Assembly: GCA_017551725.1 (NCBI GenBank) | Contig: JAFZKY010000014.1 | Span: 2,721-66,720 of the forward strand | From: Bacteroidales bacterium | GTDB lineage: Bacteria; Bacteroidota; Bacteroidia; Bacteroidales; WCHB1-69 | Length of the DNA: 64,000 nt | Direction: 5' to 3' | In this document: piece after piece, positions 12,958-37,384 of the stretch | Layout of the letters: each line of letters opens with the position of its first letter | Numbering within the stretch: position 1 is the stretch's first letter | Position numbers and translations under genes: made by a program | The notes under the pieces: generated by a model | What the model saw: the letters and a program-made list of their open reading frames with translations, nothing else | Told to the model about the DNA's origin: nothing | The model's database searches: none

Positions 12958-13031
12958 GCTTCCTTAGCTCAGTTGGTTAGAGCATCTGACTGTTAATCAG
13001 AGGGTCCTAGGTTCAAGTCCTAGAGGGAGCG
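12958..13031 (+). tRNA. tRNA-Asn (anticodon GTT)
   Basis: The cloverleaf was folded by hand. Acceptor GCTTCCT pairs with AGGGAGC, the anticodon loop is CTGTTAA, and the T arm is CTAGG-TTCAAGT-CCTAG. Confidence 0.93.
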
Positions 13032-13042
13032 CAAAGAAAATC

Positions 13043-13081: not shown

Positions 13082-13107
13082 GGTACTAACAAAGGTACTA
13101 ACATTTT
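13082..13107 (+). repeat. Tandem GGTACTAAC-AAA-GGTACTAAC-ATTTT, candidate integrase arm-type site (left arm)
   Basis: An identical 26-mer recurs at 37158-37183 in the same orientation, just inside the other island end. Confidence 0.5.
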
Positions 13108-13749: not shown

Positions 13750-14184
13750 ATGGAAAGACTACTAACAGAACAGACCAAAAGGGTCGAAAAAAATGAACAA
13801 ATCACAGAAGAGAACATCATCTGTTCCTTGAAAAAGAATGCGAGGATCTTTAAAGAAGAATTAGACTTCATCCTCAGAGAAAACAAACAATCGATGATTC
13901 AGATTCGCGCAATTTCCGACCTGAACATGCCGAACATGATTTCTCGACTAAAAAAATTTGTCGAGGGACTAGCGCAGAATCAACTGCATAACTTCAAAGA
14001 ATCATCCGAGATAAATGATAGTTTCAGTAAACAGTATGAACGTTTGAATAATTTAGAGGATGGTCTGAAGCTGCACTGCATTGAGTGTGAGAATTTCGGA
14101 ACAATCCGAAAAACATTTGAGAAAATCGACGTAGCTACTCGAAGAATCATGTTGCTGAACAGCGATGTCCCCCCATTATTCTAG
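13750..14184 (+). CDS. Hypothetical coiled-coil protein
   Basis: 144-aa ORF with charged, heptad-like composition, directly upstream of a Dam methylase. Confidence 0.5.
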   Translation: MERLLTEQTKRVEKNEQITEENIICSLKKNARIFKEELDFILRENKQSMIQIRAISDLNMPNMISRLKKFVEGLAQNQLHNFKESSEINDSFSKQYERLNNLEDGLKLHCIECENFGTIRKTFEKIDVATRRIMLLNSDVPPLF

Positions 14185-14218
14185 TGCTGAATTTACTAAT
14201 AATCTAAACATCAAACAC

Positions 14219-15031
14219 ATGACATTTATTAAAAGCAATTTACGTTGGCCAGGTGGCAAATCCAAAATGATGCCTTTTTTAGAACCTTTCATTCCTGGGC
14301 GAATAGACAGATACCTTGAAGTCTTTACAGGAGGAGGCAGTGTCCTTCTATATATGAAACAAACACGAAACATACGAACTGTTTATGCGAACGACATCGA
14401 CGCAAATCTCATTAATTACTATAACGCCGTCAAGTACGATCCCGTTGGTCTTATCCGCGAAATCATGACCATAAAAAAAACTTATACAGCTGAAACGTTC
14501 ACTGATGTTTACAAAACAATTGACGTTGCGACACCGAGCGGTTTCTTTGTTTCTAACAAGACGTCATTCTCAGGCCTCGGCAACAGCTACTCAAACAGCA
14601 CATTTGATTCCAATTTTTCTTACAATGCGATCAAAAGCATTTACTTGATCTCCAAAGTGATCAAGAATGTTAAATTTCTTAATCTCAACTTTGTTGATTT
14701 GGATTCTAGAATAGATGATTTTCAAGACTTTTTTGTTTACCTAGATCCTCCGTATTTCAGCAATAGGGACGTGGGGCTATATGGTGAACATGGGAATCTT
14801 CACAAAGGTTTCGATCACGATACTCTTTGCAGCTGGGTAAAAGCACACGCTGACAAAAACAAAATAATGCTCAGTTACGATGACAGCGAATACATACGTT
14901 CACTCTATGAAGGATTCAACATCTACAGCTTTGACTTCACGTACACCATGACCAATGTTGGTAATAAAAAATGTAAGGTCGGTAAGGAACTAGTTATAAC
15001 TAATTATTCCAAACCGTACCAGCTATTCTGA
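14219..15031 (+). CDS. Dam-family (D12 class) N6-adenine DNA methyltransferase, copy 1
   Basis: Motifs RWPGGKSK, FTGGGS (SAM binding) and catalytic DPPY are present. The ATG at 14219 is preferred over 14165. Confidence 0.85.
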   Translation: MTFIKSNLRWPGGKSKMMPFLEPFIPGRIDRYLEVFTGGGSVLLYMKQTRNIRTVYANDIDANLINYYNAVKYDPVGLIREIMTIKKTYTAETFTDVYKTIDVATPSGFFVSNKTSFSGLGNSYSNSTFDSNFSYNAIKSIYLISKVIKNVKFLNLNFVDLDSRIDDFQDFFVYLDPPYFSNRDVGLYGEHGNLHKGFDHDTLCSWVKAHADKNKIMLSYDDSEYIRSLYEGFNIYSFDFTYTMTNVGNKKCKVGKELVITNYSKPYQLF

Positions 15032-16219: not shown

Positions 16220-16476
16220 AGCTATGAGTTTGCGTTAATAAATGATATGTTTTGTCACCTTGATAAGTGGTGTCATTATCATATAATAAAAAATTCAAAC
16301 TTTTGTTGAGAAAAAACAGCTGCAACATGTGGACGCAGTACTACTTTCATTTTGTACTACTTTAACTCTAACGTTCTTTTATTTTATACCATATATTTGT
16401 TATATATATAACTCTTTGAATTATTGTATTACATATTGGATTTTTTTGTATCTTTGTGGCTCCAAAAATCAATGAT

Positions 16477-17133
16477 ATGAAACAAGCTGTAATATATGCC
16501 CGCGTTAGCAGTGTAGGAAATCGGCAGAGCACGGAGAGGCAAGTCATGGACTTGAGGAAATACGCCGATCATGAAGAATACAATGTGTGCAAGGTGTTTG
16601 AGGAACACGTCAGCGGAGCCAAGCGGAACCATGAACGCCCGATACTCTGTGAATGCTTGGAGTATTCTATCACAAACCATATTGACATCCTTCTCATCAG
16701 CGAGCTTAGCCGTCTTGGGCGAAAAGTGGATGAAGTGCTGGAGAACGTGAAATTCTGTAAGGATCGCCACCTGAACATCTATTTCCAGAAAGAGAACCTT
16801 TCGATTTTCAATCCAGATGGAAGTGAGAATCCATTCCTAACTATCATGATAGCGGTTCTAGGCACTTGCGCTGAACTAGAACGTGAAGCTATTTACTATC
16901 GCCTCAACAGCGGTAAAGAGAAATACATCGCAGAGGGAGGCAAGGTCGGCAGAAAGGTTGGGTATCGAAAACCAATGGAGGTCAAGGAACAAGAGTATCG
17001 AGAGGTAATCCGACACTTGAGAAAAGGAACCACCATACGTGATACCGCCAAGCTGACAGGACATTGCGTGCGGACTGTTCAGAAGATAAAAAAAGAGTTT
17101 GGAATTAAAAAACAAAACTCACCAACGCCTTAA
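16477..17133 (+). CDS. Serine recombinase (resolvase/invertase family) with C-terminal HTH
   Basis: Catalytic VIYARVSS...RQ, then SELSRLGR, and a C-terminal HTH (TIRDTAKLTGHCVRTVQKI). A TAtcTTTG box lies at 16449-16456. Confidence 0.88.
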   Translation: MKQAVIYARVSSVGNRQSTERQVMDLRKYADHEEYNVCKVFEEHVSGAKRNHERPILCECLEYSITNHIDILLISELSRLGRKVDEVLENVKFCKDRHLNIYFQKENLSIFNPDGSENPFLTIMIAVLGTCAELEREAIYYRLNSGKEKYIAEGGKVGRKVGYRKPMEVKEQEYREVIRHLRKGTTIRDTAKLTGHCVRTVQKIKKEFGIKKQNSPTP

Positions 17134-17144
17134 TACAGATGTTC

Positions 17145-17519
17145 TTATTTGTTCGTCTTGAGAAACATATCCAAATCAAACCGACTTTCAATGGACTCTT
17201 CTATGCAGTCATCAAGAAACTCGAACAGATCCAATCCTGATGCGGATTCTACAACATTGACTGAGCATACAACACTATCAATAGTCACAACATTGGAATT
17301 GTTGGGGCACAAAAACGCAACCGCATGGTAACAACCTGCGTGATTTATCAGGAATGCTTTGAAATAATAATCAGGAATACTCACCTTATGAACACCTATT
17401 GTCCGTGGGGGCGAAGTGGAGAACATCAAGGCCTTTGTTCCGCTTTTTGATTTCTTGAATGTAATCCTCTGTGACAAAGATCCTGTCCATAACCCTATCG
17501 ACATTATCCTTAGTGCCAC
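17145..17519 (-). CDS. Hypothetical protein
   Basis: 124-aa ORF with no recognisable motif. It is convergent with the recombinase gene. Confidence 0.35.
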   Translation of the reverse strand: MALRIMSIGLWTGSLSQRITFKKSKSGTKALMFSTSPPRTIGVHKVSIPDYYFKAFLINHAGCYHAVAFLCPNNSNVVTIDSVVCSVNVVESASGLDLFEFLDDCIEESIESRFDLDMFLKTNK

Positions 17520-17639
17520 TTATATTTGTATGCTTCCCCAAACAGTAAACACAATTCGGGGATCATTTTTTTCTTTTTTTTATTATATTATAAATAAGGA
17601 GTGGGAACTCCGATGTTTTATTAACCATATTTTTTTTAT

Positions 17640-18659
17640 ATGCATACCTATACACACGTAGATAATTTTTATAGTCCGAGCGGAATATGTACGGGGATTA
17701 AGGCGGAAGGTGTGACCAGAGTCGCGATTGAGCCAGCCAAAGGTTGTTGTGAAGAGATCTTCTCAACAAAGATCAAGGAAGCTAAACCATTTGTCAAGTG
17801 GGCAGGAGGGAAAAGACAATTAATACCAACTATCGACGAATTTGTAGCAGTCGCAAACGGGAAAGTGGCTATTGACACTTACGTGGAACCATTTGTCGGT
17901 GGTGGTGCAGTGTTGTTTTGGATCCTGAGCAATTATGACCAAATAAAGCGAGTTGTCATTAATGATATTAATGTAGATTTAATGACCGCATATCAAGTTG
18001 TTCGTGATGCTCCCGAAGATTTGATAGAGGCATTAGCCAAGCTACAAAGTAAGTATTACTCTATCAAAGTAGATGAAAGAATGGTATTCTTCAACCAAGT
18101 CAGGGACGCGTATAACAAAAAGGAGTTGGACTCTGTTGAAAACACAAGCTATTTCATATTTTTGAACAGAACGTGCTTTAACGGTTTATATCGTGTTAAC
18201 AGAAAAGGATTGTATAATGTTCCATTTGGTAAATATGTGAGCCCAAGAATATGTGATGAAACAAATATATATGCCTGTAGTCGTTTGCTCCAGAAAGTAG
18301 AAATTCTATGTGGTGACTATTCGCAAACGATTGGCTATGCTAACCAGCATAGTTTATATTATTTTGACCCGCCCTACAAGCCCTTGTCTATGACTTCAAA
18401 TTTCACAGCTTATTCTACAACCGCATATAACGATGAAGAACAGATAAGGTTGAGTGCTTTTTGCCAAAAAATAGATGAAGCAGGTAGCCTTTTCCTCCTC
18501 AGTAATTCAGACGTGAGTCAAGTTGATCACGGTAACTGCTTTTTTGACGACTTGTATCGAGACTTTAATATTCATCGGGTGCGAGCCAGGAGAATGATAA
18601 ATTCCGTTGCATCGAAAAGAGGTGATGTTTCAGAATTATTGATATGTAATTTCCACTGA
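17640..18659 (+). CDS. Dam-family (D12 class) N6-adenine DNA methyltransferase, copy 2
   Basis: Motifs KWAGGKRQL, FVGGGAV and DPPYKP are present. A ~48-aa N-terminal extension makes the start uncertain. Confidence 0.85.
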   Translation: MHTYTHVDNFYSPSGICTGIKAEGVTRVAIEPAKGCCEEIFSTKIKEAKPFVKWAGGKRQLIPTIDEFVAVANGKVAIDTYVEPFVGGGAVLFWILSNYDQIKRVVINDINVDLMTAYQVVRDAPEDLIEALAKLQSKYYSIKVDERMVFFNQVRDAYNKKELDSVENTSYFIFLNRTCFNGLYRVNRKGLYNVPFGKYVSPRICDETNIYACSRLLQKVEILCGDYSQTIGYANQHSLYYFDPPYKPLSMTSNFTAYSTTAYNDEEQIRLSAFCQKIDEAGSLFLLSNSDVSQVDHGNCFFDDLYRDFNIHRVRARRMINSVASKRGDVSELLICNFH

Positions 18660-18684
18660 TGCAAAAACTACTATGAAAATAAAG

Positions 18685-19030
18685 TGGAAGTGAGAATCCA
18701 TTCCTTACCATCATGATTGCAGTTTTAGGCACTTGTGCCCAACTTGATAGGGAGGCAATATATTACCGTCTAAGCAGTGGTAAAGCAAAATTTATAGCTG
18801 AGGGCGGAAAGGTTGGCAGAAAAGTCGGGTATCGTAAACCAAAGGAGGTTAAGGAACAAGAGTATCGAGAGGTAATCCGACACTTGAGAAAAGGAACCAC
18901 CATACGTGATACCGCCAAGCTGACAGGGCATTGCGTGAGAACTGTTCAGAAGATAAAAAATGAGTTTGGAATCAAAAAACAAAACTCACCAACGCCTAAA
19001 CATGGAAAGCAATCAGACAGATTCACATGA
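18685..19030 (+). pseudogene. Duplicated 3' fragment of the serine recombinase gene (HTH part only, no catalytic domain)
   Basis: 18685-18997 aligns without gaps to 16818-17130. The encoded 95 aa differ at 7 positions. The original stop is lost and the ORF extends 10 codons. Confidence 0.75.
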
Positions 19031-22675: not shown

Positions 22676-23170
22676 CTACAATATCTCCATCGCAATCCTT
22701 GCGCACGCCTCTGCATCCGCAAGGGCGTGATGATGGTTCGTCATCGGGTAGCCGCAAGCAGCTGCAACAGTATGTAACTGGTGGTCGGGGAGCTGCTGTC
22801 CGAAATGCTGTCGAGAGGCGCGGCAGGTGCAGTGAAAGTCGTAATAGGGATAGTCCATCTGATAAACACCAAACACCGCTCGTAGACAGCTTTCATCAAA
22901 CGAACTGTTGTGCGCCACAAGAGACAACCCCTCGATTAGCGGTTCTATCTGTCGCCACACATCAGGGAACAGAGGGGCGTTATCGGTATCTTCATGCGAG
23001 AGTCCGTGCACCTCCTGACAGAACCCAGCATAGTAGTTGGGTTCTGGCTTAATGAGACTATAGTACGTATCGACAATGAGCCCGTTGCGAACGACCACTA
23101 GACCCACGCTACATACGCTGCTGCGTTGTCCGTTGGCGGTTTCAAAATCAATGGCGGCGAAATCTTGCAT
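22676..23170 (-). CDS. DEDDh 3'-5' exonuclease (DnaQ/epsilon-like)
   Basis: Exo I is AIDFETA, Exo II is HNSSFDESCL and Exo III is HHALADAEA. The ATG at 23170 is preferred over the TTG at 23221. Confidence 0.8.
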   Translation of the reverse strand: MQDFAAIDFETANGQRSSVCSVGLVVVRNGLIVDTYYSLIKPEPNYYAGFCQEVHGLSHEDTDNAPLFPDVWRQIEPLIEGLSLVAHNSSFDESCLRAVFGVYQMDYPYYDFHCTCRASRQHFGQQLPDHQLHTVAAACGYPMTNHHHALADAEACARIAMEIL

Positions 23171-23217
23171 GATTGAACATTCTTTGGGCGTATTATAATG
23201 ATTGCTTTCTTCCACGC

Positions 23218-23937
23218 TCAATCCAAACTTATCAGCTGATCCATAAATACTTCTTGGCAGATATGATAAGTGGTCATGCGCATGATGTCAGGAATGCTGT
23301 AGTACTGACTGTTACAAAGTTCACAGAAGGAGTAGCAAAACAAGATTTCTTTGGGCAGTACGAGGTCTATTTCACATGGTTCTTTGTATGTATAGGAGTC
23401 AGAAGAGTCTCCATAGCAACTATATAAATTGTCCGTCATACTAACACTGCCTATCATGTCGAGAATCTCTATCATGTCGTTCCACTGTGAACCGTAGAAA
23501 CCGTCATCTTCCCTAATGATAAGTTTCGGGTTCTGAGCGTCGTGGCGATAGGTCAAACTGGAACTTAAACTGAAAAATGGTTGGATAGTCGTCAGCTGCT
23601 TGATTCCGTTCTTATGGATTTCCAAAACCTTAGCTTCCATCTGGAGAAGTCGTTTGTTGGTTATCTCCAAATCTCGAAAATAGGTCTCCGAGTAGTTCAA
23701 TTCAAACATTCGGTTCAGTAAGGTACAACGAATCTCGACTTGTTCTAATATTTCGTCCTCGTTACGGAGAATGGATATCCCCATGTTGTCTTCGTCGTAG
23801 TCTTCGTCGTAGTTTTCGCCGAAATCGCAAGCCAACCTCAAAATCTCACACTCGCACTGTCTGAGATACCGACGTAAAAAGTCTGTGTCGGTTTGCTCTT
23901 GTATCTTAATGATTTCTAGACTTTTTTGATTGGTCAT
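23218..23937 (-). CDS. Hypothetical protein
   Basis: 239-aa ORF with ATG start and an acidic DEDYDEDN patch. No motif was recognised. Confidence 0.6.
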   Translation of the reverse strand: MTNQKSLEIIKIQEQTDTDFLRRYLRQCECEILRLACDFGENYDEDYDEDNMGISILRNEDEILEQVEIRCTLLNRMFELNYSETYFRDLEITNKRLLQMEAKVLEIHKNGIKQLTTIQPFFSLSSSLTYRHDAQNPKLIIREDDGFYGSQWNDMIEILDMIGSVSMTDNLYSCYGDSSDSYTYKEPCEIDLVLPKEILFCYSFCELCNSQYYSIPDIMRMTTYHICQEVFMDQLISLD

Positions 23938-23962
23938 ATTCGTAATACGTTATATTGTTTTT

Positions 23963-24301
23963 TTACAACCACAACGACTGGAAATGATCACAGAAGAGCT
24001 TCAACCCCTCATGGATAAGTTTTTCCTGATCAACTTCCGATAATCGAGAATCACGATACTCAGGAAGGTTGGACGGGGAAGCTAACAGGTCAAAGGTGCG
24101 AATCATGGTACGCAATGCCCCCTGCCAATCCTTCTCACTGCGAAAGTCGCTGGGGACGGTGTGGTAACGCCGTTTCTCGGCCTCCAAGAACCGCCGCAGC
24201 TTCGTGGCGATGTGTGCTGCAAGCGTATGATACAAGTCCCATACGTCGGCGTATGATTCCTCCTGCACGTTATGCTTTAGTAATTGTCTTTTTTTTGCCA
24301 T
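23963..24301 (-). CDS. Hypothetical protein
   Basis: 112-aa ORF from the ATG at 24301. A TTTG...TAttTTTG promoter-like pair lies directly upstream on the minus strand. Confidence 0.55.
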   Translation of the reverse strand: MAKKRQLLKHNVQEESYADVWDLYHTLAAHIATKLRRFLEAEKRRYHTVPSDFRSEKDWQGALRTMIRTFDLLASPSNLPEYRDSRLSEVDQEKLIHEGLKLFCDHFQSLWL

Positions 24302-24447
24302 ATTAGTGACCGTTTGAATTACGTTGGCAAAAATAAAGCACAACTATGCCAAAATGAGGCGTAGTTGTGCTTGAGTTGAAAGAAAAAAGTTTTTCAAGCT
24401 TTTCTCTTATTTTTTCACTCAAATCCTAAAAAGATGAGTGGAAAAAA

Positions 24448-26388
24448 TCAGTTGTTACTTAACAAAGAATCTATCTGTTGCCTTGTTGTAAGCATTGCAC
24501 ATATCATTTCGGTCATGTCTGCAATAGTATTCCTCTCTTTAAAAGCATCAGTATCGGGAAACAGCACTCCAAATTGCATTCGCAAATAATGCTCGTTGTA
24601 ATATGGATAAGCCCCCTCTTCTAATGGTCGGCTTTCATAACATGTTATACGTTTGTGTGAGAATTTGTGGACGGTCACTTCATATTTCTGGCTTATTTCG
24701 GCATATTGATCTTTATATCCAAGTTCTTCAAGGTATTGTGGAACAGTATTCCACTGACAGTGCATATAGACAACCATTTGCAGATTCAGCCGTATGCGTC
24801 CTTTATCAGAATACGTATGCAAATTGACAGATATGTCTGGTGTCAATTGAATAGGGGCATTCTCCTGTACACGTGCAGAGGCAGGTGCAATAATGTGGTC
24901 ATATTGAGGCAATACCTTTTTCAAAGACACAATGAGCAAATCACGCACTTCTTTTAGAAAACTGCTATGATGATAATCCACAGGTGCTTGATCGTTAGCT
25001 TCTATGTTTGTGACTGCCGAGGAAAGCATTGCGGAACGAATATGGTCTTCAATAATTCTAGGTTCATCTAACCCTGAATCAATATATGATTCAGTCGTAT
25101 TTGCATTATGTTTCACATCTTGTTTGTGCGTTTCCACAATGACAGTACGCATTAAGTTAAGCAACATGGAGATGTTTAACGCCTTGTTGCGAAGATAATA
25201 GTCAGCAAAACATATACGGTAAAGCAATTGTTCCCATTCTTCGTCAAATTCTGATACTGAGGCCAAATTATTGCGAGTTGTTTCCTCTAATGGTTTGAGA
25301 TTCAACTGAAAAGCGATGTCTTCATTCCATGTTGTGAAACTAGGATATTTGTTCAAAACATTATATATTCTAGGGTAAGCAATCTGCATACTCACCAAGG
25401 CAAAACTTAGAAAAACTGAAAGATTGTCTTTTAAGAAATCTCCATCGATTTTGTCTTGTGCCTCATTGATACACTTAATGAGCGACAGGTTGTTGAGCAG
25501 GCGTTTCAACGAACGTGGATTGTTTCCCACGGTGATTTTTGCCGCTTCAGAAATATGCGACATCAGAACCTTGTTGTCGTGCTGTGTAGAGCTGCACCAA
25601 CCGATACTGAAGAGAGAATCTTGTAGAAACTTATCCACGCGATAATTGCTCACAGGCATAGTGAACGGCACTTGGATGATTTTGTCGAAGAAGGATCGAA
25701 ATTCGCGTTCATTGGTATCAGTGAGTTCCCCGAATTTGGGTTTCAGCCCTTTCACCACCACATCATAGTCTATGGCGAGGACAAAGACGCACTTTTCGAG
25801 TGTGAAGATGTTCTTCAGTAGCTCTAACAGTTCAACAGCTGTTGGCGGATTGATACGGTCAAGGTCATCGATGAAGAATATGAAACCACTTTTCCCGCTT
25901 TCCTTGACTTTTTCTTTTACCGTCTCTTGCAATTCGTCACGAAGTTCGCCCACAGATGAATTTTTAGTTGAAAAGAACTCGTCTATCGCGCTGCCGTCTC
26001 CGCCAGTGATGCCAATAGCTGTTTTTGCGGCCACAGCACTAATCCTCTTCACTTTTTCAAACAGTGCTTTTCGTTTGACCTCGTTGTTGCTGGCAGTCTG
26101 CTGCACCATTTTGGAAATGATTTGAATCAATGTGGATGACGAGTCGCGCATCAGGGCATACTCCCATGTGTTGATCCACACGGGGAGGAATTGCCCATCA
26201 GGTCCGCATAACTCATCTTGGAGAGTGTTCATCAAAGAGGTTTTGCCACTGCCCCACTCGCCTTGCAAAGCGATGGTTATTGGTGTGTTGGTGCCCTCTA
26301 TGAAGCGTATTAACCCCTGTGCATAGGGATGTATCCCGAAAGAATCCTTTTCGGGACAGGGGGTGTCGGGAATACTTGTGAATTTCAT
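24448..26388 (-). CDS. KAP-family P-loop NTPase
   Basis: Walker A is GEWGSGKTSLMN and Walker B is FFIDDLDR, typical of KAP NTPases. The ATG at 26388 is preceded by a TActTTTG box. Confidence 0.8.
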   Translation of the reverse strand: MKFTSIPDTPCPEKDSFGIHPYAQGLIRFIEGTNTPITIALQGEWGSGKTSLMNTLQDELCGPDGQFLPVWINTWEYALMRDSSSTLIQIISKMVQQTASNNEVKRKALFEKVKRISAVAAKTAIGITGGDGSAIDEFFSTKNSSVGELRDELQETVKEKVKESGKSGFIFFIDDLDRINPPTAVELLELLKNIFTLEKCVFVLAIDYDVVVKGLKPKFGELTDTNEREFRSFFDKIIQVPFTMPVSNYRVDKFLQDSLFSIGWCSSTQHDNKVLMSHISEAAKITVGNNPRSLKRLLNNLSLIKCINEAQDKIDGDFLKDNLSVFLSFALVSMQIAYPRIYNVLNKYPSFTTWNEDIAFQLNLKPLEETTRNNLASVSEFDEEWEQLLYRICFADYYLRNKALNISMLLNLMRTVIVETHKQDVKHNANTTESYIDSGLDEPRIIEDHIRSAMLSSAVTNIEANDQAPVDYHHSSFLKEVRDLLIVSLKKVLPQYDHIIAPASARVQENAPIQLTPDISVNLHTYSDKGRIRLNLQMVVYMHCQWNTVPQYLEELGYKDQYAEISQKYEVTVHKFSHKRITCYESRPLEEGAYPYYNEHYLRMQFGVLFPDTDAFKERNTIADMTEMICAMLTTRQQIDSLLSNN

Positions 26389-26454
26389 TGTTGCAAAAGT
26401 AAATTGTTTAAAAACGGAATGTCCAACACTCAATAGACCACCCCTATCGTTAAA

Positions 26455-26937
26455 TTAGTATCTTGCAATGAGACCACATTCCCAAATAATAGCAGCTAGT
26501 ATTGCTTCATCATAATAACCGTCAATAATCAGGATGGGATAATTTTCAGGGTGACGAGAATGGTCGCGTGCTTTAAAAATCTGACCATCTTCAATGATTA
26601 ATAAAGGATAGTTTTCAGGATGACGAGAATGATCGCGAGCTTCAAATACCATATCCCCCTCGATAATCATAAAAGGATAGTTTTCTGGGTGTTTAGAATG
26701 GTCACGAGCCTTATAGATCTCACCTCCATTAACAATCAGAAAGGGGTAATTATCAGAATGATGAGAATGGTCGCGAGCTTCAAAGATCATATCTCCATCG
26801 ATAATTATTGTTGGATAGTTTTCTGGTTGGCTAGAATGGTCACGAGCCTTAAATACTTCGCCATCCTTAATTATCATAAAAGGATAGTTTTCAGGGCGGC
26901 TAGAATGGTCACGAGCTTCATAAATCTTGGTAATCAT
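26455..26937 (-). CDS. Tandem-repeat protein: six 23-aa ARDHSxxPENYPxxIIxxGxxF(E/K) units
   Basis: The repeat was read directly from the translation. The ATG at 26937 follows the conserved leader motif. Confidence 0.7.
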   Translation of the reverse strand: MITKIYEARDHSSRPENYPFMIIKDGEVFKARDHSSQPENYPTIIIDGDMIFEARDHSHHSDNYPFLIVNGGEIYKARDHSKHPENYPFMIIEGDMVFEARDHSRHPENYPLLIIEDGQIFKARDHSRHPENYPILIIDGYYDEAILAAIIWECGLIARY

Positions 26938-26945
26938 AATAATAA

Positions 26946-26969
26946 CCCTAATACGTGTCGGGCGCAACT
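26946..26969 (-). promoter_or_regulatory. Conserved leader motif AGTTGCGCCCGACACGTATTAGGG (copy on minus strand)
   Basis: The same 24-25-mer occurs upstream of the ATGs at 30276 and 31727, 3-8 nt before the start codon. Confidence 0.5.
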
Positions 26970-27058
26970 GTTATTAATTTTACTATTTACTTATTGTAAT
27001 AATTTCTAACCGCAAAACTACAAAAAAATTATTTCTAATCAACAACCAATATTTTCCA

Positions 27059-27610
27059 TTACTCTATTTGAACTATAGTCGGTTTTGGCCCAGCAATAAC
27101 CTCCGCCACTTTCAGTTCCATGTCCCTAAAATAATCCTCTAACGGCATGTTGCCATCTGCCTTCGAAAGTTCCTCTTGCATGTCAATCACGTGAATGTCA
27201 TCCACCCCCAAGAAATGGCGGTCGAGGGGACGGTCATAGAGTTTGGAATCGAAGTGCGGTGGTAAAAGGTATATGAGATGCCGCTTGATGTTGGCGTGAT
27301 GCGCTTTGCACCACAAGAGGTTCACCCCCATGGCCGCAATTTGCAGTTCTGTGTTCGAGCATCTGTGCTTGACATTCGGATTCGGGTGCGGCGCGGGTAC
27401 CATGTTCGTGGGCGAGTCCCACACGAGGAGCCACACCTCCACAGACGGGTCGTATAGCCCATCCTCCGCACAATAGAGGTTCTCCCTGACAAAATTCTCA
27501 CTTTCCATCCATTCGTATGCGTATGAGGAGGGCAGGTGCTGCATAATACCCTCTTTGCACTGCACGGCGTTGTAGCCCACAGGAATAATGATGTGTTTCG
27601 TTCTATCCAT
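27059..27610 (-). CDS. Hypothetical protein
   Basis: 183-aa ORF with ATG start and a Bacteroidetes-type promoter upstream. It is more GC-rich than its neighbours. Confidence 0.6.
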   Translation of the reverse strand: MDRTKHIIIPVGYNAVQCKEGIMQHLPSSYAYEWMESENFVRENLYCAEDGLYDPSVEVWLLVWDSPTNMVPAPHPNPNVKHRCSNTELQIAAMGVNLLWCKAHHANIKRHLIYLLPPHFDSKLYDRPLDRHFLGVDDIHVIDMQEELSKADGNMPLEDYFRDMELKVAEVIAGPKPTIVQIE

Positions 27611-27711
27611 TTTCTTTGATGTTTAAATACGCTGGCAAAAATAGAACATCGCTGTGCCATATTTTGGCATATAGGCGTTATATTTTTGCAGCGTTCAAAA
27701 ATTGTAAGGAT

Positions 27712-29442
27712 ATGAAAAAAGAAAACATTTTGCAGACATTGAGTTTTCTTGCATTAAAAATGGAAAACTCTGAGACTATCTTATTAGAAGCCGTGGCACC
27801 CAATTCTATTGCTCATTTAGATCATGCATTGACACGGCAGAACGACTCAGCCATTCATAAAGAGTTTAGCAAAACAGAGATATGTGAGATTGTTAAAAAG
27901 TTGGAGGATGTCGCCAAATTCCTCGGTATCTCAACCATTCAGGCTGTTATTATGATGGTTGCCTTCTGCAATAAATTCCAAGACAATTATATAGATTGGA
28001 ACGATGTCCACAAATTTTTCAATGTAAAGAGTATGGTGCTGCTTCCTTTGAAAAAAGAATTTGACCGTCTGGTATCTGGTAAATTCCTAAAACGAGCTGG
28101 GAAAAGACATTCTGAATATTATGATATTGAGCAAAAAGTAGTGGACTCCGTAATGAATGAACATCCATTTGACCCTTGTATATTGAAAGAAGCACGTCTT
28201 GATCGATATAAATTTGTCAACGAAATTTCCGATTTGATCGAGCTACGTAGTGATGACGAGATATCCACCTCCGATCTTTTTGAACGTTCATATGAGATGG
28301 AACAACAGAACAATACTCTTACTTTTGTTCAGAATGTCAAGAAATTGAATCTTGAGACTAAAGACAGAGTCTTATTCTATGAGATTTGCGACGATTTTCT
28401 TGCTCATGGTGAAACGGGAATCAATTGTACGCTGAAGGACATGTATAGTAATCCTAGCACTCGTTTTCGAATTGCAAAGGAGTTGATGGACGAAAAGCAG
28501 ATTCTGCAAAAGTTAGATTTAGTGATCCTCCTTCGTGACACAATATTCTCTGATAGTAATTTGACCCTGACCGAAAAAGGGAAACAACTCTTTTTAGAGG
28601 AAGATTTCGAGCTTTTTGCCAAATCCAAAAATCGAGACCAGAAAACAATATACCCCGAAGACATTCAAGAAAAGTCCTTGTTTTATGATGAAGAACTCTC
28701 GCGACAGCTAAATCTGCTGAAAGAAAATCTCCAAGAAGAGCGTTTCTCAGAGCTGCAAAAACGATTGGAAGAACAGTCGCTACCTAAGGGGGTTGCTGCC
28801 ATCTTCCATGGGCAACCTGGCACAGGGAAAACCGAAACTGCGATGCAAATTGCCAAAGCTACAGGTCGTGCAGTGTGTCACGTGGACATAGCAAGTTCCA
28901 AAAGTTGCTGGTTTGGTGAAAGCGAAAAACTTATTAAGCGTATATTTACCGATTATGCTGGACTGTGCAAAAAATCCCCTCTTAAGCCGATTCTACTTTT
29001 CAACGAAGCAGACGCTCTCTTTTCCAAACGCAAGGATAGCATTTCATCAAACGTGGCGCAAACAGAGAATGCCATCCAAAACATTATCCTTGAAGAAATG
29101 GAAAAACAGGATGGAATACTCATAGCTACCACCAATCTCATAGATAACTTGGACAGAGCTTTTGAACGACGTTTTCTATTCAAAATCCGTTTCAACAATC
29201 CCACGGTGGAAGCAAAACAGTCTATCTGGAAGAGCAAACTCTCTTGGTTGTCTGAAAACGAAAGTCGCATACTCGCAGAACGCTACAATTTCTCAGGCGG
29301 CGAAATCGACAACATCGTCCGCAAGGTTATTATGGATGAGGTACTCAACGGAATACACCCTGACATGCAATTCGTTGAAGAACTATGCCGCTATGAAAAG
29401 ATTGGCAACAAGGAGACGAACTTCATTGGGTTTAGAAAATGA
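27712..29442 (+). CDS. Classic-clade AAA+ ATPase with a long uncharacterised N-terminal region
   Basis: Walker A is GQPGTGKTETA, Walker B is ILLFNEADALF, and sensor/Arg-finger region ATTN...RAFERRF is present. The ATG at 27712 follows a TAttTTTG box. Confidence 0.85.
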   Translation: MKKENILQTLSFLALKMENSETILLEAVAPNSIAHLDHALTRQNDSAIHKEFSKTEICEIVKKLEDVAKFLGISTIQAVIMMVAFCNKFQDNYIDWNDVHKFFNVKSMVLLPLKKEFDRLVSGKFLKRAGKRHSEYYDIEQKVVDSVMNEHPFDPCILKEARLDRYKFVNEISDLIELRSDDEISTSDLFERSYEMEQQNNTLTFVQNVKKLNLETKDRVLFYEICDDFLAHGETGINCTLKDMYSNPSTRFRIAKELMDEKQILQKLDLVILLRDTIFSDSNLTLTEKGKQLFLEEDFELFAKSKNRDQKTIYPEDIQEKSLFYDEELSRQLNLLKENLQEERFSELQKRLEEQSLPKGVAAIFHGQPGTGKTETAMQIAKATGRAVCHVDIASSKSCWFGESEKLIKRIFTDYAGLCKKSPLKPILLFNEADALFSKRKDSISSNVAQTENAIQNIILEEMEKQDGILIATTNLIDNLDRAFERRFLFKIRFNNPTVEAKQSIWKSKLSWLSENESRILAERYNFSGGEIDNIVRKVIMDEVLNGIHPDMQFVEELCRYEKIGNKETNFIGFRK

Positions 29443-29519
29443 GTGTCTAATAATTCGCATAGGTCGCACCATTTTCTATCTAATATGTGCGCTGTTTTAC
29501 CATATTAAAACATGCCGTT

Positions 29520-30149
29520 ATGTTAAAATTTTTACGGGAAACACTTTCTATCGGGGACTTTGTGGAGGTGGAAACTTCCACAGGATTAGTGCGTGGCTCC
29601 ATCTTGGAAATACCACCTGATTGTTTGGTGATGCTAACTGATGGCGAACTACACGAATATTCAGAGGAGCAGTTGTTGAGTATCAAATACTTTTCCGATG
29701 ATCACGATGCCTATCGGGATTGTTATATCCAAAAGTTTATACCAGAAGAAAAGAGTGAGAGATATTTTTGGGCAGAAAACCACAATGGATCGTTGTGTTG
29801 CACGAATTTCGACAACATCATCACAATTTTTATGGGCTGGAATATGCGTTTCCAACGCGGTCATCTTGACTTGCCCGACTTGATTGATGTGGAGGACGAA
29901 TACTATTATATAGAAGTCTTGAGCAATGATTGTGATGATTGTTTTTCGGACTATATCACTTCCGTCAAGTTACCGAAACATTTGAAGAGTATTGAGCCAC
30001 TATTCATAGGAAGAATCTTCCTCCAGAAAATATATGTTCCCTATACTTTAGTTTATTCGGGAGGGTACAAAATAGGCGGTTGCACCACATGTCAAGTTTT
30101 CGACTTGAATGGAAAACTTTTGGATTGGGAGTTTGAAGAGGATTGGTGA
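29520..30149 (+). CDS. Hypothetical protein (Cys-rich)
   Basis: 209-aa ORF with no motif recognised. The start is uncertain (GTG 29487 or ATG 29520). Confidence 0.55.
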   Translation: MLKFLRETLSIGDFVEVETSTGLVRGSILEIPPDCLVMLTDGELHEYSEEQLLSIKYFSDDHDAYRDCYIQKFIPEEKSERYFWAENHNGSLCCTNFDNIITIFMGWNMRFQRGHLDLPDLIDVEDEYYYIEVLSNDCDDCFSDYITSVKLPKHLKSIEPLFIGRIFLQKIYVPYTLVYSGGYKIGGCTTCQVFDLNGKLLDWEFEEDW

Positions 30150-30213
30150 ACAGTGCCGCACTTTTGCACACTTCCGATATATTTTTGCCGCAGGTTCCAT
30201 CCCATACGCCCTC

Positions 30214-30273
30214 GCCGAAAAGCGTTCAATAGAGTAGGCATTTTTAAAAGTTGTGCCCGACACGTACTAGGGA
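30214..30273 (+). promoter_or_regulatory. Conserved ~60-nt leader: GCCGAAAAGCGTTCAATAGAGTAGGCA...AGTTGTGCCCGACACGTACTAGGGA
   Basis: A near-identical block is at 31656-31719. The distal 25-mer is also at 26946-26969 on the minus strand. Confidence 0.5.
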
Positions 30274-30275
30274 GA

Positions 30276-30515
30276 ATGATTATGCCGCAAATGATAGTCT
30301 ATAATGGGGAACTGATACGTATTAGCCCCAAAAACAAGAGAAAAATAGAGGTGTCTACCAATCATGGTGGATCATGGATGACCCGCTGTGTTGGATCTGC
30401 CAGCACTGGAGAATTCCTTGATTTGGTAAACAATGGCTCTGAGATAATTGCCACCACCGAAAACGGGCTGTTCGTCTCCTCCAACAACGGAGGATCTTGG
30501 ATAAGAAGATGTTAA
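30276..30515 (+). CDS. Small protein with two Asp-box/BNR-like SxNxGGSW motifs
   Basis: 79-aa ORF carrying STNHGGSW and SSNNGGSW. Confidence 0.5.
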   Translation: MIMPQMIVYNGELIRISPKNKRKIEVSTNHGGSWMTRCVGSASTGEFLDLVNNGSEIIATTENGLFVSSNNGGSWIRRC

Positions 30516-30540
30516 CAATTATCCCTAAAAATATACCACT

Positions 30541-30819
30541 ATGAGAAATTTAAAAAACAACATGCTGGCACTGATACTTGTGATTTGCAATTTTGCTGTC
30601 TATGCAGAAACTGCTTCAGAAGCTGCCAACCCTTCAGAATCCAACATTTTCATTGAGATCTTGGTTTACGCTTTGATTTTCGGAATTCCATTGTTGGTGA
30701 TTATCCGAAAAATTAGGCGAAAAATCAGGAACTTCAAGGAGGATGTAAAAAGTGGCGGTTTCGGAGAAGCAACCATGAGCCGTTTGGAAGACCATTTCGA
30801 CAGAAAGAACAAGAAATAG
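30541..30819 (+). CDS. Small membrane protein (signal peptide plus one TM, basic cytoplasmic tail)
   Basis: 92 aa. An N-terminal hydrophobic leader ends in YAE, a second TM (ILVYALIFGIPLLVII) follows, then RKIRRKIR. Confidence 0.55.
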   Translation: MRNLKNNMLALILVICNFAVYAETASEAANPSESNIFIEILVYALIFGIPLLVIIRKIRRKIRNFKEDVKSGGFGEATMSRLEDHFDRKNKK

Positions 30820-30839
30820 CAGACTAAACGCTTCTCGTC

Positions 30840-31679
30840 ATGAATCTTAAATTCTTTTTCAGTTCCATTGTTTCGAACCGCTATTTTGAGTGGGCGATAA
30901 CGATTGTTATTCTCGTGAACGCCGTACTTATCGGTATCGAACTAAATGTTTGTGATCCCACCATCGGACTGATACAGAGGATTATTTTGCTGATTTTTAC
31001 CGTGGAAATCCTGATGCGATTCATGGCGAGAGAAAATGTGAGGGAGTTTTTCTCTAACGGTTGGAACATCTTCGACCTCACTCTTGTGTTGATTGGTTAT
31101 ATTCCAGAGGATCTCTTTGCCAATGCTTCCGCCATGATGGCTATTAGGGTGCTCCGTGTATTGCGCGTACTTCGATTGCTCAGGGCTGGAAAAGAAATCA
31201 AACTTATTACTACTGTGCTTACCAAATCGATGGTGTCTATGGTGTGGTACGTCATCCTGTTTGCGATTTTCATTTACCTGTTTGCTATAATAGGGGTAAG
31301 CATGTTCAAGTTGCCCGACCCCGAAAAGCTAACGCTAGAAGACCGCTCAAGATACGAACAGTTTATGCGTGAAGTTCACAACGCCCCCGACAACTCTCCT
31401 GACCCGTTCGGGTCGCTGTCGGAAGCAATGTTTACTCTATTCCGCGAGCTAACAGGCGAGGATTGGACAGACCTGCGTTACAACACTATCTCCGCCTACG
31501 AGTACGGCGTTATCCGTGTGAATCCTGTGGTCATCACCACCTACCACATAGTTTGGTTTTCGCTGTCAGTCTTCCTGTTGCTGAACTTAGTTACAGGATC
31601 AATCATCAACAACTATCAAAACATAAAGGAAGAGCAAAATAATCAAAACGCCCCAGCCGAAAAGCGTTCAATAGAGTAG
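30840..31679 (+). CDS. Voltage-gated cation channel, single-domain 6TM BacNav/NaChBac family, Cav-like selectivity filter
   Basis: S4 is RVLRVLRVLRLLR (Arg every third residue). The pore loop is FTLFRELTGEDWTD. At 279 aa, the length matches NaChBac-type channels. Confidence 0.85.
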   Translation: MNLKFFFSSIVSNRYFEWAITIVILVNAVLIGIELNVCDPTIGLIQRIILLIFTVEILMRFMARENVREFFSNGWNIFDLTLVLIGYIPEDLFANASAMMAIRVLRVLRVLRLLRAGKEIKLITTVLTKSMVSMVWYVILFAIFIYLFAIIGVSMFKLPDPEKLTLEDRSRYEQFMREVHNAPDNSPDPFGSLSEAMFTLFRELTGEDWTDLRYNTISAYEYGVIRVNPVVITTYHIVWFSLSVFLLLNLVTGSIINNYQNIKEEQNNQNAPAEKRSIE

Positions 31680-31719
31680 GCAAAAAATTCTAGCAGTTGC
31701 GCCCGACACGTAATAGGGA
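31656..31719 (+). promoter_or_regulatory. Conserved ~60-nt leader, second full copy (overlaps the last 8 codons of the channel gene)
   Basis: GCCGAAAAGCGTTCAATAGAGTAGGCA...AGTTGCGCCCGACACGTAATAGGGA. The ATG follows at 31727. Confidence 0.5.
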
Positions 31720-31726
31720 AACGAAA

Positions 31727-31948
31727 ATGAGTAAGGTTTATAGAATCACACCGAAAGCTATTCACAGAACAAACAACACCGTTTTGACTCCTGAGATGGA
31801 AATCATCGTGACTTTAGAGCGTCATACATCCGACCCATTCTACAATGGTGCAAAAGAAATCAAAGCCATGTATATGGACAGATATGGCTTTGATTATGAG
31901 CGGGCGAATGCAACAAAAGCTTGGTTTGATTATGAGAGATTAGACTAA
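31727..31948 (+). CDS. Small conserved hypothetical protein (possibly DUF6140-like)
   Basis: 73-aa ORF. The family assignment is from memory of similar small Bacteroidales proteins and is unverified. Confidence 0.5.
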   Translation: MSKVYRITPKAIHRTNNTVLTPEMEIIVTLERHTSDPFYNGAKEIKAMYMDRYGFDYERANATKAWFDYERLD

Positions 31949-31967
31949 CAATTTGATAAATACAACA

Positions 31968-31997
31968 TGACGGGCAGGATTTTTCTCCTGCCCGTCA
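31968..31997 (+). terminator. Strong hairpin terminator closing the plus-strand block
   Basis: TGACGGGCAGGA-TTTTTC-TCCTGCCCGTCA, a 12-bp perfect stem. Confidence 0.7.
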
Positions 31998-32092
31998 TAT
32001 TGAAAAACCTTTACTTGGTATACTTTTCTATAACATTTACACCAACGGAACCATATACAAATCTTGTTGATTATCAATGATTCACATGCATA

Positions 32093-32136
32093 GTTCTCTT
32101 AAAGTTCTCTTAAAGTTCTCTTAAAGTTCTCTTGAA
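32093..32136. repeat. 11-bp tandem repeat GTTCTCTTAAA x4 (last unit degenerate)
   Basis: Read directly. An inverted copy TTTAAGAGAA lies at 32147-32156, next to the stop of the 32157-33845 gene. Confidence 0.85.
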
Positions 32137-32156
32137 ATGCTCATACTTTAAGAGAA

Positions 32157-35744: not shown

Positions 35745-37001
35745 CTATATCACCTCCTTCAGCAGCTGTTCCTTCAGTTCCTTACATTGGATCATTGAAA
35801 TTGTTCTCAACGAATTAATATAACCCTGTGTGGTTGTCACATTGGCATGTCCCATGTCGCTCTGAATATCCGCCATGTTTCTACCATTCTCCAGCGACCA
35901 AGTGGCAAAGGTATGCCTCGCCTGAGCCATTGTGATGAATGGAAGACCAAGATCCTCGGCAACAATGTGAAGACCAATATTAGCCCTATCGTTTATGTCA
36001 TGCACTCGGTCGTTTATTTGCTTTTCCGTTTTTGCATTACTCAAGAATGGAAAGATGTAGTCGTTTGGGTGAGATGGATTTATAGAACCATATTTTTTTA
36101 TGAGTTCCATTGTCGCATCCAAAAAGAATATTGATACTGTGATTGAACGTCGTCTGGTTTTATGTCGGATGAACTGAACCATCCAATTATTTTCCACTTT
36201 GCTAATATTTTTATTTTTAAGTCGCAATAAATCACTTAGATAGTGTCCATTTAACAAAAATGATAAAGCGAACATGTCTCGACCAAACTCTGCCTTAGGG
36301 TCAGAACTTTTATATGCAAGTATTTGTTTCAAGCTTTCGCATGACAGACCATAATTAACCTTTCTCGTAGACGTGAGCGAATATTTTTTGAATGGTTTTT
36401 TATCATCAACATAACCCCTGTCCACAGCAAAATTGCAGACTGCTCTAATACACCTGAAATGAGCATTGATCGTGTTTTGCGAAATGTCAGGTTGATGTTT
36501 GCGCATAAACATATCCAGCTTGGGGATCATCTCTTCTGTTATTTCTTCTATTGTTAGTTTTTCTTTGTATTTTGTCAACCAGTTTAAGGCGGTTTTGTAT
36601 GCTCCCTTCGTCCTGTCGGATATTGGTCGAGGGTTAGTCGTATCAGACATGTATTCAGCAAAAACGCTTCGTACATCGTATACACTGCTGATCTTTTTGT
36701 GGACAATCCTTTTGTAGTCTTGTGTGAAGGACGGGAAATTGAAATTTTCGCCAAGCTTTTTGATAATATCTATGGCAGCATTATAAGCGGGGAGCACTTC
36801 CTCGTATGCTGTTTTATACATTTTCAAGTTCTTGTTGTTGAATTCCTGCACGGTCAATTTAGTTCTGCCTCCAGCTGTATAATACCTCGTGTTCCTATCA
36901 TGGGTAACTCTCAACACCAGTATCCTTCTGTCGGGATTGCGGTCAGCATCCCTACGGGGAGACTTGGGGTTGCGGATAATATTTACACTCGGTTTATTCA
37001 T
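35745..37001 (-). CDS. Tyrosine-type site-specific integrase (Bacteroidetes Arm-DNA-binding N-terminus)
   Basis: The catalytic region has RHTFATW...MGHANVTTTQGY. It lies next to the island end. Confidence 0.9.
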   Translation of the reverse strand: MNKPSVNIIRNPKSPRRDADRNPDRRILVLRVTHDRNTRYYTAGGRTKLTVQEFNNKNLKMYKTAYEEVLPAYNAAIDIIKKLGENFNFPSFTQDYKRIVHKKISSVYDVRSVFAEYMSDTTNPRPISDRTKGAYKTALNWLTKYKEKLTIEEITEEMIPKLDMFMRKHQPDISQNTINAHFRCIRAVCNFAVDRGYVDDKKPFKKYSLTSTRKVNYGLSCESLKQILAYKSSDPKAEFGRDMFALSFLLNGHYLSDLLRLKNKNISKVENNWMVQFIRHKTRRRSITVSIFFLDATMELIKKYGSINPSHPNDYIFPFLSNAKTEKQINDRVHDINDRANIGLHIVAEDLGLPFITMAQARHTFATWSLENGRNMADIQSDMGHANVTTTQGYINSLRTISMIQCKELKEQLLKEVI

Positions 37002-37157: not shown

Positions 37158-37183
37158 GGTACTAACAAAGGTACTAACATTTT
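37158..37183 (+). repeat. Tandem GGTACTAAC-AAA-GGTACTAAC-ATTTT, candidate integrase arm-type site (right arm)
   Basis: Identical to 13082-13107. Confidence 0.5.
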
Positions 37184-37289: not shown

Positions 37290-37337
37290 AATCTGACTGT
37301 TAATCAGAGGGTCCAAGGTTCAAGTCCTTGAGGGAGC
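37290..37337 (+). repeat. attR: displaced 3' half of tRNA-Asn (anticodon arm through acceptor end)
   Basis: Matches 12984-13031 except for a compensatory T-stem pair (CAAGG/CCTTG against CTAGG/CCTAG). Confidence 0.85.
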
Positions 37338-37346
37338 GCAAACAGA

Positions 37347-37384
37347 AAAGCACCGATTCACAGCAGAATGGGTGCTTTTTTTAT
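37347..37384 (+). terminator. Hairpin plus T-run after the tRNA fragment (probably the original tRNA-Asn terminator)
   Basis: AGCACC...GGTGCT followed by TTTTTTT. Confidence 0.55.

Follow-up and report, generated by a model that had tools for sequence, protein, structure and literature searches.

We examined a gene block (positions 27712 to 31948) in a 64,000-nucleotide (nt) stretch of Bacteroidales DNA (here, the window; GenBank assembly GCA_017551725.1, contig JAFZKY010000014.1, positions 2,721 to 66,720 of the forward strand), in which the gene for an AAA+ ATPase is followed by that for a voltage-gated-type cation channel. The original prediction, made from the letters alone, treated these genes as parts of one six-gene conflict system, in which the ATPase, together with its neighbor p209, senses infection and the channel acts as a membrane-permeabilizing effector. 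We find instead a mosaic: the block is assembled from three or more modules that are separable and shuffle independently, and the channel belongs to a small cassette of its own that is restricted to defense islands. We favor the reading, with a probability of roughly one-half, that this cassette (a leader followed by bnr79, tm92, and the channel) is a candidate abortive-infection or addiction-type channel module that is independent of the AAA+ defense gene.

All six plus-strand open reading frames (ORFs) reported earlier are present. In comparisons with orthologs on the related contigs L106 or L186, the ratio of nonsynonymous to synonymous divergence (dN/dS) is 0.00 to 0.19 for all six genes wherever dS is unsaturated, and this purifying selection indicates that they are real genes rather than chance ORFs. 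The features of the block and its edges are as follows.

27643, minus strand: putative divergent -7 box serving a 183-amino-acid (aa) gene (pattern search)
27681-27688, plus strand: putative Bacteroides-type -7 box, TATTTTTG, 24 nt before the AAA+ start (consensus match only)
27712-29442, plus strand: AAA+ ATPase, 576 aa (PF00004 at aa 364-495, E 6e-23)
29520-30149, plus strand: p209, an ORF of 209 aa with 8 Cys residues, 4 of them invariant
30180-30187, plus strand: putative second -7 box, TATTTTTG, about 18 nt 5' of leader copy 1 (pattern search)
30205-30240, plus strand: leader module H, copy 1, a DUF805b-like hairpin, ACGC..GCCGAAAAGCGU..AGAGUAGGCA (RF02914, 32.0 bits, E 3e-6)
30250-30273, plus strand: leader module B, copy 1, GTTGTGCCCGACACGTACTAGGGA (repeat D13)
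30276-30515, plus strand: bnr79, a small soluble protein of 79 aa and first gene of the cassette, with two SxxxGGSW Asp-box-like motifs
30541-30819, plus strand: tm92, the membrane partner, 92 aa (from reading of the sequence; homologs lie upstream of channels)
30840-31679, plus strand: Ion_trans channel with six transmembrane (TM) helices, 279 aa (PF00520, E 1.4e-44)
31647-31682, plus strand: leader module H, copy 2, a DUF805b RNA (RF02914, 37.4 bits)
31696-31719, plus strand: leader module B, copy 2, GTTGCGCCCGACACGTAATAGGGA (repeat comparison)
31727-31948, plus strand: DUF6140 protein, 73 aa, in a separate leader-headed mini-cassette
31967-31979 and 31986-31998, no strand assigned: hairpin with a perfect 13-bp stem and a 6-nt loop, between the convergent DUF6140 (plus) and AlbA_2/HATPase_c_4 (minus) genes

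Separable modules and their leaders

Contigs related to the window (denoted by L numbers) carry the label Bacteroidales and derive from metagenomes of gut and rumen. Among them we distinguish six variants of the channel, at 74 to 95% identity: the window, L104/L106, L087-90, L095-98/L147, L091-94/L107, and L108. Adjacency of the AAA+ gene and p209 to the cassette is confined to two of these, the window and L104/L106, and neither gene is adjacent in the other four (L087-98, L107, L108, and L147). The modules also occur apart. L186 carries the AAA+ gene (82% identical) and p209 with no channel, and L190 carries p209 while the AAA+ gene (window 27644-29506) is cleanly missing. L190 likewise lacks window 30240-31646, which holds bnr79, tm92, and the channel; its DUF6140 cassette is inverted, and the junctions of this deletion and of the inversion fall exactly at copies of the H leader. 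In L099 the AAA+ gene is followed by a different partner, a DnaB_C-like ATPase, and in two pairs of contigs (L102/L096 and L099/L093) an AAA+ homolog and the channel lie 13 to 17 kb apart. The AAA+ family is vast, with 8000 scored candidates, all at E ≤ 1e-5, while tm92 forms only 4 clusters among 1.84 billion (1.84e9) representatives and the island channels amount to 8 sequences, so that most AAA+ homologs cannot have the cassette as a partner.

Several features do suit a single system. The six genes are co-directional, their order recurs in L104/L106, AAA+ homologs share contigs with channel homologs in two further variants, and the hypervariable N-terminus of the ATPase looks like a sensor. 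Nevertheless, the claim that the ATPase is the sensor of one system running through to the channel is not supported: L186, L190, four of the six variants, the -7 box and leader that the cassette has of its own, and the recombination junctions between modules all speak against it. We consider the cassette very probably independent of the AAA+ gene. The conserved functional unit around the channel appears to consist of a small protein, a membrane partner, and the channel; judged by gene order across the variants, the AAA+ gene and p209 are outside it.

Transcription signals point the same way. The -7 boxes before the AAA+ gene and before leader copy 1 predict two units, one of the AAA+ gene with p209 and one running from the leader through bnr79, tm92, and the channel (and possibly on through the second leader to DUF6140), so the earlier caveat that the block might hold more than one transcription unit was correct. 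The 39 nt at 30153-30191 are similar (72%, repeat D10) to those of the AAA+ promoter region at 27654-27692. A search for the pattern TAnnTTTG found no -7 box before p209, tm92, the channel, or DUF6140. The strict Bacteroides promoter (TTTG, 17 to 23 nt, TAnnTTTG) has no match in the block, where the -7 box is present alone, and a sigma-70 scan stayed at background level. A terminator scan found no site between p209 and leader copy 1, and because no terminator separates the predicted units, read-through between them is possible. The gaps between the last four genes are 25, 20, and 47 nt, in agreement with the spacing first reported. At the end of the block, the reported 12-bp-stem terminator is borne out as a hairpin (13 bp by our reading) and not as a plus-strand terminator: the T-tract of the 31967-31998 hairpin was called by the terminator scan on the minus strand only, which argues for a hairpin shared by convergent genes rather than a textbook plus-strand terminator. 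It is likely a bidirectional terminator.

The repeated leaders noticed in the original prediction are real. One segment (30206-30240 versus 31648-31682) is 94% identical over 35 nt, and a second (30242-30273 versus 31688-31719) is 84% identical over 32 nt. Both H copies match the 35-nt model of the DUF805b RNA (RF02914, clan CL00115) end to end; relative to the Rfam gathering score of 35.6, copy 1 scores below and copy 2 above. H copy 2 overlaps the final 11 codons of the channel, and B copy 1 ends 2 nt before the ATG at 30276 and 8 nt before an alternative ATG at 30282. A third B copy (26946-26978, minus strand; inverted repeats I1/I2) precedes a gene for a protein of 23-aa repeats (26455-26937, minus strand). 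The consensus of box B is GTTGYGCCCGACACGTAnTAGGGA (GTTGCGCCCGACACGTA..AGGG), and the box ends 2 to 10 nt before a start codon.

In the related islands there are 14 distinct H+B leaders, highly conserved in sequence by eye, and more than 20 distinct leader copies in total. Apart from one 355-aa gene, all of the latter stand before small first genes: bnr79, a 44-aa protein, DUF6140, repeat proteins, and proteins of 66 to 71 aa. The 14 distinct H+B leaders resemble each other too closely for covariation analysis, and the stems that RNAalifold gives are all of 3 bp. The DUF805b RNA is named for DUF805 genes, whereas among the proteins submitted to Pfam none downstream of the leaders (bnr79, DUF6140, the 44-aa protein, repeat proteins, and the 355-aa protein) matches DUF805. 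Unlike the described RNA, the island motif has a second conserved box behind it, is found ahead of many small first genes of unrelated kinds, and coincides with recombination junctions. A literature search on DUF805b found nothing relevant. These leaders appear to mark both cassette starts and recombination junctions across the island family.

The gene for the 73-aa protein, grouped with the channel in the original prediction, does not hold up as a channel partner. It has its own leader copy and is found elsewhere in islands in either orientation, including away from any channel and in opposite orientation in L094, L096, L186, and L190. The DUF6140 match is weak in the window protein (18.6 bits) but is listed for an identical protein.

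The channel and its membrane partner

The channel is a single-domain voltage-gated-type cation channel of the Ion_trans/AnclNav kind, as judged from its sequence. PF00520 covers aa 13-266 at 152.5 bits (cutoff 25), corresponding to profile positions 1-240 of 241. The S4 arginines (R103, R106, R109, R112, and R115) are invariant in 23 homologs, and the selectivity filter 204-LTGEDWTD-211, of the T-x-E-x-W type with extra acids at positions 4 and 7, is invariant in the channel family. The dN/dS of the channel is 0.06. Sequence matches in the PDB include NavRh (8.5e-24), NaChBac (5e-21), and repeats of CaV and NaV channels. The bacterial matches cover aa 6-163 only (voltage sensor and S5); because the S5-P turret is long (about 40 residues), eukaryotic CaV/NaV repeats are all that the pore half aligns with. 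Reading of the sequence beyond S6 gives about 20 residues and no neck with coiled-coil C-terminal domain as in canonical bacterial voltage-gated sodium channels (BacNaVs). This short C-terminus is a departure from the canonical BacNaV and not from the Ion_trans superfamily.

The AnclNav channels NavPp of Plesiocystis pacifica and CavMr of Meiothermus ruber (Shimomura et al. 2020, PMC7041947) are likewise single six-TM Ion_trans proteins with an S4 arginine ladder. The filter of NavPp reads TLEDWTD, compared to TGEDWTD in the window, with Gly replacing Leu at filter position 2. With this nearly identical filter, NavPp conducts Na+ and is blocked by Ca2+, while canonical BacNaV mutants carrying the NavPp filter are Ca2+ selective (PMC7041947). 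Since the two differ with that filter, the selectivity of the window channel cannot be called from sequence. Unlike AnclNav and BacNaV channels, those of the island clade lie in defense islands beside the gene of a dedicated membrane partner.

By our reading, the N-terminus of that partner, tm92, resembles a signal peptide and is followed by an acidic ectodomain of 13 aa, one TM helix, and a tail in the cytosol that is basic (RKIRRKIRNFKEDVK...). The protein has no match in PADLOC, PHROGs, NCBIfam, or Pfam. Its homolog in L091 (75 aa; 65% over 60 aa, 2e-14) lies directly upstream of a channel. In L108 the corresponding partner is a 157-aa protein that joins an SH3_3 ectodomain to a tm92-type TM helix and tail, and elsewhere among the variants it is a 250-aa SH3_3 multi-TM protein. 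Measured against L106, the dS of tm92 is 0.345 and that of the channel about 0.35, compared to 0.75 to 1.1 for p209, bnr79, and DUF6140, with the AAA+ gene saturated; by this measure, tm92 and the channel are co-inherited. The eukaryotic NaV beta and KCNE auxiliary subunits offer an analogy only, that of a small single-pass protein with an optional extracellular domain that is co-inherited with its channel, and no homology. To our knowledge, prokaryotic BacNaV channels do not have subunits of this kind.

All six variants share the same order, namely, a leader (at least the B box), a small protein, a membrane partner, and the channel, and in all six a co-directional membrane protein is encoded 3 to 25 nt upstream of the channel. 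For the small protein bnr79, the two Asp-box motifs first reported are present as SxxxGGSW, and its match to Pfam BNR is weak (E 0.006). Its orthologs are 86% (L106) and 68% (L108) identical, both before channel cassettes, and a 44-aa protein takes its place in other variants. The surroundings are equally constant: all six variants are found among GmrSD, PLD, WYL, RNase_T/DEDDh, McrBC, KAP, or integrase genes. Whether this channel recurs on mobile islands beside the 92-aa gene, a question raised at the outset, can therefore be answered in the affirmative for the closest clade, with 6/6 variants in defense islands. The cassette shows two features of defense systems, a recurrent location among known defense genes and a conserved multigene unit, and the variants may share one ancestral island.

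The broader channel family looks different. It is widespread, with 1597 proteins at E ≤ 1e-10 and, in a genome collection, at least 565 confirmed relatives among the 600 pattern matches listed. Relatives at ≤72% identity were found in 35 GTDB Bacteroidota species genomes (44 to 71%) and about 75 metagenome loci, and these roughly 110 loci have no recurrent neighbor gene family, with mostly housekeeping genes in their flanks. Among 102 unique channel sequences, the 8 from islands group in a single clade. Its fixed substitutions are Y136W and N137Y where S5 begins (94 solitary sequences all have Asn at the latter site) and A244V and A254S in S6, and they hint at altered gating. Accessory genes occur only with channels of ≥74% identity, apart from a second clade described below. 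The statement in the original prediction that no Ion_trans defense system has been described is consistent with our searches: full-text searches found none, and in a PADLOC scan no model matches the channel. We rejected a prophage or phage origin for the channel, as a scan of viral contigs gave one match at 26% identity.

The second accessorized clade, 67 to 72% identical, was observed in L007 (385-1263), L010 (5995-6819), and L109 (1301-2173). The genes that flank these channels, at 5 to 35 nt, encode an N-terminal region like TerB and a small domain like bPH, and AAA_14/DUF4143 ATPase and ORF6N genes lie near them in L109 and L007. The partner set differs from that of the window cassette.

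The AAA+ ATPase, p209, and the surrounding island

The C-terminal part of the ATPase is a classic-clade AAA domain (PF00004), as first proposed, and its start codon is backed by 576-aa homologs. L106 has a sister island, L104, and against its AAA+ allele the N-terminal 285 aa are 29% identical and the C-terminal 291 aa 86% (N-terminal regions compared: window 27712-28566 and L104 9748-10600). This split has the look of one allele of a putative specificity domain having replaced another, and hypervariability of this kind is the pattern expected for a specificity or sensor domain. An AlphaFold2 model (mean confidence score, pLDDT, 77) renders the N-terminal 350 residues as helical repeats resembling winged helices; in a fold search with this part, the winged-helix-like matches were nonsignificant (best E, 0.014). 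The N-terminal stretch of about 285 aa may best be described as hypervariable and helical, resembling tandem winged helices, and we claim no family membership for it.

The best PADLOC match of the ATPase is IetA (E 6.5e-24), which covers aa 319-561, the ATPase part only. We rejected membership in the Ietat system because the score against the best NCBIfam match, IteA_antiphage, is 77.1 bits (cutoff, 510) and no IetS serine protease gene is adjacent. IetAS has a subtilisin-like IetS protease as its partner, which the window AAA+ lacks; the N-terminal 350 aa of the ATPase and p209 are unrelated to Ietat components, and the ATPase half alone matches.

The p209 family comprises 19 clusters. The protein has no sequence match in Pfam, PADLOC, or the PDB, and library scans gave a weak DUF2642 match. 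Its AlphaFold2 model (pLDDT 70) matches Hfq in a Foldseek search over aa 1-57 (E, about 2e-3), and the rest of the model is of low confidence. The N-terminus may be an Sm/Hfq-like small beta-barrel, for which support is marginal, followed by what is modeled as a beta-rich C-terminal part with the invariant Cys residues. Across the contigs, p209 appears to be the usual downstream partner of the AAA+ gene, yet separable from it. We take the two together as module 1, a defense-type NTPase. L002 was rejected as a variant with a different gene after the AAA+ gene, since its sequence does not differ and only the gene call is shorter.

The block lies within a 24-kb island (about 13.0 to 37.3 kb) inserted at a tRNA-Asn gene. 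In the GC profile of the window the island stands at about 0.40, compared to 0.50 to 0.55 outside. Its boundaries are marked by the following features.

12958-13032, plus strand: intact tRNA-Asn(GTT), the left island boundary (attL side; ARAGORN and Rfam tRNA, 72.6 bits)
35745-37001, minus strand: tyrosine integrase, adjoining the right island boundary
37291-37347, plus strand: partial 3' copy of tRNA-Asn, the right island boundary (direct repeat D4, 93% over 57 nt)

The island encodes two Dam methyltransferases, a serine recombinase, WYL-WCX, PLD nuclease, GmrSD, a DEDDh exonuclease, a KAP NTPase, AlbA_2/HATPase_c_4, and RmuC. Many of its genes match PADLOC families (MTase_II, WYL, DrmC-like, and HEC-06/SspE-like, as well as PDC-S48 and PDC-S20/PifA/QatA-like). 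The segment is a mobile anti-phage defense island of an uncultured gut or rumen Bacteroidales bacterium.

Several further observations concern the island itself. An identical 26-nt sequence, GGTACTAACAAAGGTACTAACATTTT, built on a tandem 11-mer, is found just inside both ends (13082-13107 and 37158-37183), and the two copies are candidate arm-type integrase binding sites. A serine recombinase with resolvase and helix-turn-helix domains occupies 16456-19030, where a 300-nt direct repeat (16818-17117 and 18685-18984; 87% identical) duplicates its 3' part; the repeat lies between the Dam-class methyltransferase genes at 14165-15031 and 17640-18659 and may be a remnant or substrate of recombinational switching. 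An 11-nt tandem repeat, AGTTCTCTTAA, is present in about 4 copies at 32092-32146, in the gap that separates the hairpin from the 3' end of the AlbA_2/HATPase_c_4 gene.

Adjoining the block, a 661-aa KAP-family P-loop NTPase (24448-26433, minus strand; PADLOC PDC-S20, PifA, and QatA at 1e-26 to 1e-31) is an independent defense candidate. The repeat protein beside it (26455-26937) has seven tandem 23-aa repeats with the consensus ..ARDHSxxPENYPxxII.G.IF. (69-nt period, 26519-26927), a B leader upstream, and no family match; leader-headed repeat-protein genes occupy the same position in L104 and L106. Both genes are insertions into a backbone of four minus-strand genes (22676-24343 and 27059-27610) that is syntenic in the window, L104, L186, and L190, with variable insertions between its members. 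The backbone encodes RNase_T/DEDDh (PDC-S48-like) and proteins of 237 to 239 aa, 111 to 126 aa, and 179 to 186 aa, and it may be a system of its own.

Possible function of the channel cassette

Membrane-depolarizing effectors of abortive infection include RexAB of phage lambda, ZorAB of Zorya, and CorA and Cam1 of type III CRISPR. Chp1 is a further such effector of type III CRISPR (bioRxiv 10.64898/2026.08.05.743128). The logic proposed for the window cassette is like that of these five, in that an ion-conducting membrane protein opens to collapse the potential, and there is no sequence or family relationship between any of them and the window channel. Gating of these five depends on a sensor protein or on a nucleotide signal, whereas the window channel has its own voltage sensor and no cytosolic ligand-binding domain.

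We infer the defense role of the cassette, its gating trigger, and its ion species as follows. A Bacteroides-type promoter and the conserved leader would drive bnr79, tm92, and the channel as module 2, with the second leader copy before DUF6140 forming module 3. The channel, presumably a tetramer, would be shut at the normal, strongly negative membrane potential, and tm92 would modulate it by way of its periplasmic side (SH3_3 in some variants) or of its basic tail. Entry of phage DNA, or damage to the envelope that the periplasmic side of the partner senses, would then depolarize the membrane or lift inhibition by the partner. The channel would open and amplify the depolarization, and cation influx would collapse the membrane potential so that infection is aborted. 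The same wiring could also work as an island-stabilizing addiction module. We put a conflict function of some kind for the cassette at slightly under to about an even chance. The most specific version of the proposal, in which a voltage-gated channel is both sensor and effector of a new abortive-infection system, tuned by the first dedicated auxiliary subunit of a prokaryotic voltage-gated channel (bearing in some variants a periplasmic SH3_3 domain of the peptidoglycan-binding type), and in which the DUF805b-type leader is a common expression and recombination signal for a family of Bacteroidales defense islands that shuffle cassettes, is doubtful as a whole and is put forward tentatively.

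A number of points weigh against the favored reading. By published validation rates, guilt by association in defense islands is wrong about half the time. The island clade is narrow, with its six variants all from gut or rumen Bacteroidales metagenomes, so that its recurrence may go back to a single island family inherited in common and not to recruitment on separate occasions. Defense genes also lie near a few solitary channels (PDC-S27, NsnA/NsnB, and mad6 matches). As to independence from the ATPase, an AAA+ homolog is present somewhere in the same island as the channel in four of the five AAA+-bearing islands examined, the two are adjacent in two variants with no terminator from p209 to the leader, and they may co-operate at a distance.

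Because the parent family is solitary and chromosomal, the island copy could instead be physiological cargo, that is, a transferable paralog of a common Bacteroidota channel that travels with an auxiliary subunit and serves ion homeostasis or signaling in the gut or rumen, with no part in conflict. We regard this explanation as rather unlikely, although it accommodates the wide distribution and housekeeping neighbors of the parent channels and the retention of all voltage-gated hallmarks under strong purifying selection, and non-defense cargo is common on mobile islands. It does not readily explain why all six variants of the clade sit inside dense clusters of defense genes, which goes beyond mere mobile DNA, or why the cassette leader is the same as that of other small island cassettes. 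Nor does it account for the gain of two dedicated accessory genes together with fixed substitutions at a gating-region residue that is otherwise invariant.

A purely addictive role, similar to that of a toxin-antitoxin pair, seems improbable. Here the channel would be a potentially lethal leak that tm92, bnr79, or both hold shut, so that loss of the island or of the partner kills the cell and any effect on phage is secondary. The partner and channel are indeed tightly coupled (gaps of 3 to 25 nt) and co-inherited, the partner family exists only with this channel clade, and the island shuffles and loses cassettes. Against this, the two products are both membrane proteins, and nothing indicates that they differ in stability as such a system would require; the mechanism overlaps with that of abortive infection to the point that the two are inseparable by sequence. 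A single six-gene system, given the modularity described above, is about as improbable.

If the cassette, read as a channel module independent of the AAA+ gene, proves protective, the voltage-gated superfamily that includes NaV and CaV would join the effectors of bacterial immunity, and a natural function would be in hand for one clade, at the least, of the prokaryotic voltage-gated cation channels, which are poorly understood. The built-in voltage sensor points to a trigger that no known system uses, the membrane potential itself, and the tm92/SH3_3 partner would offer a readily studied model of channel auxiliary subunits. The DUF805b RNA motif, in turn, is recast as a leader of many unrelated small cassettes in Bacteroidales defense islands, which appear to shuffle cassettes at its copies. 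This could be useful in mining for further defense genes, for which DUF6140, the 44-aa protein, the 23-aa-repeat protein, p209, and the RNase_T/p239/p126/p183 backbone are targets.

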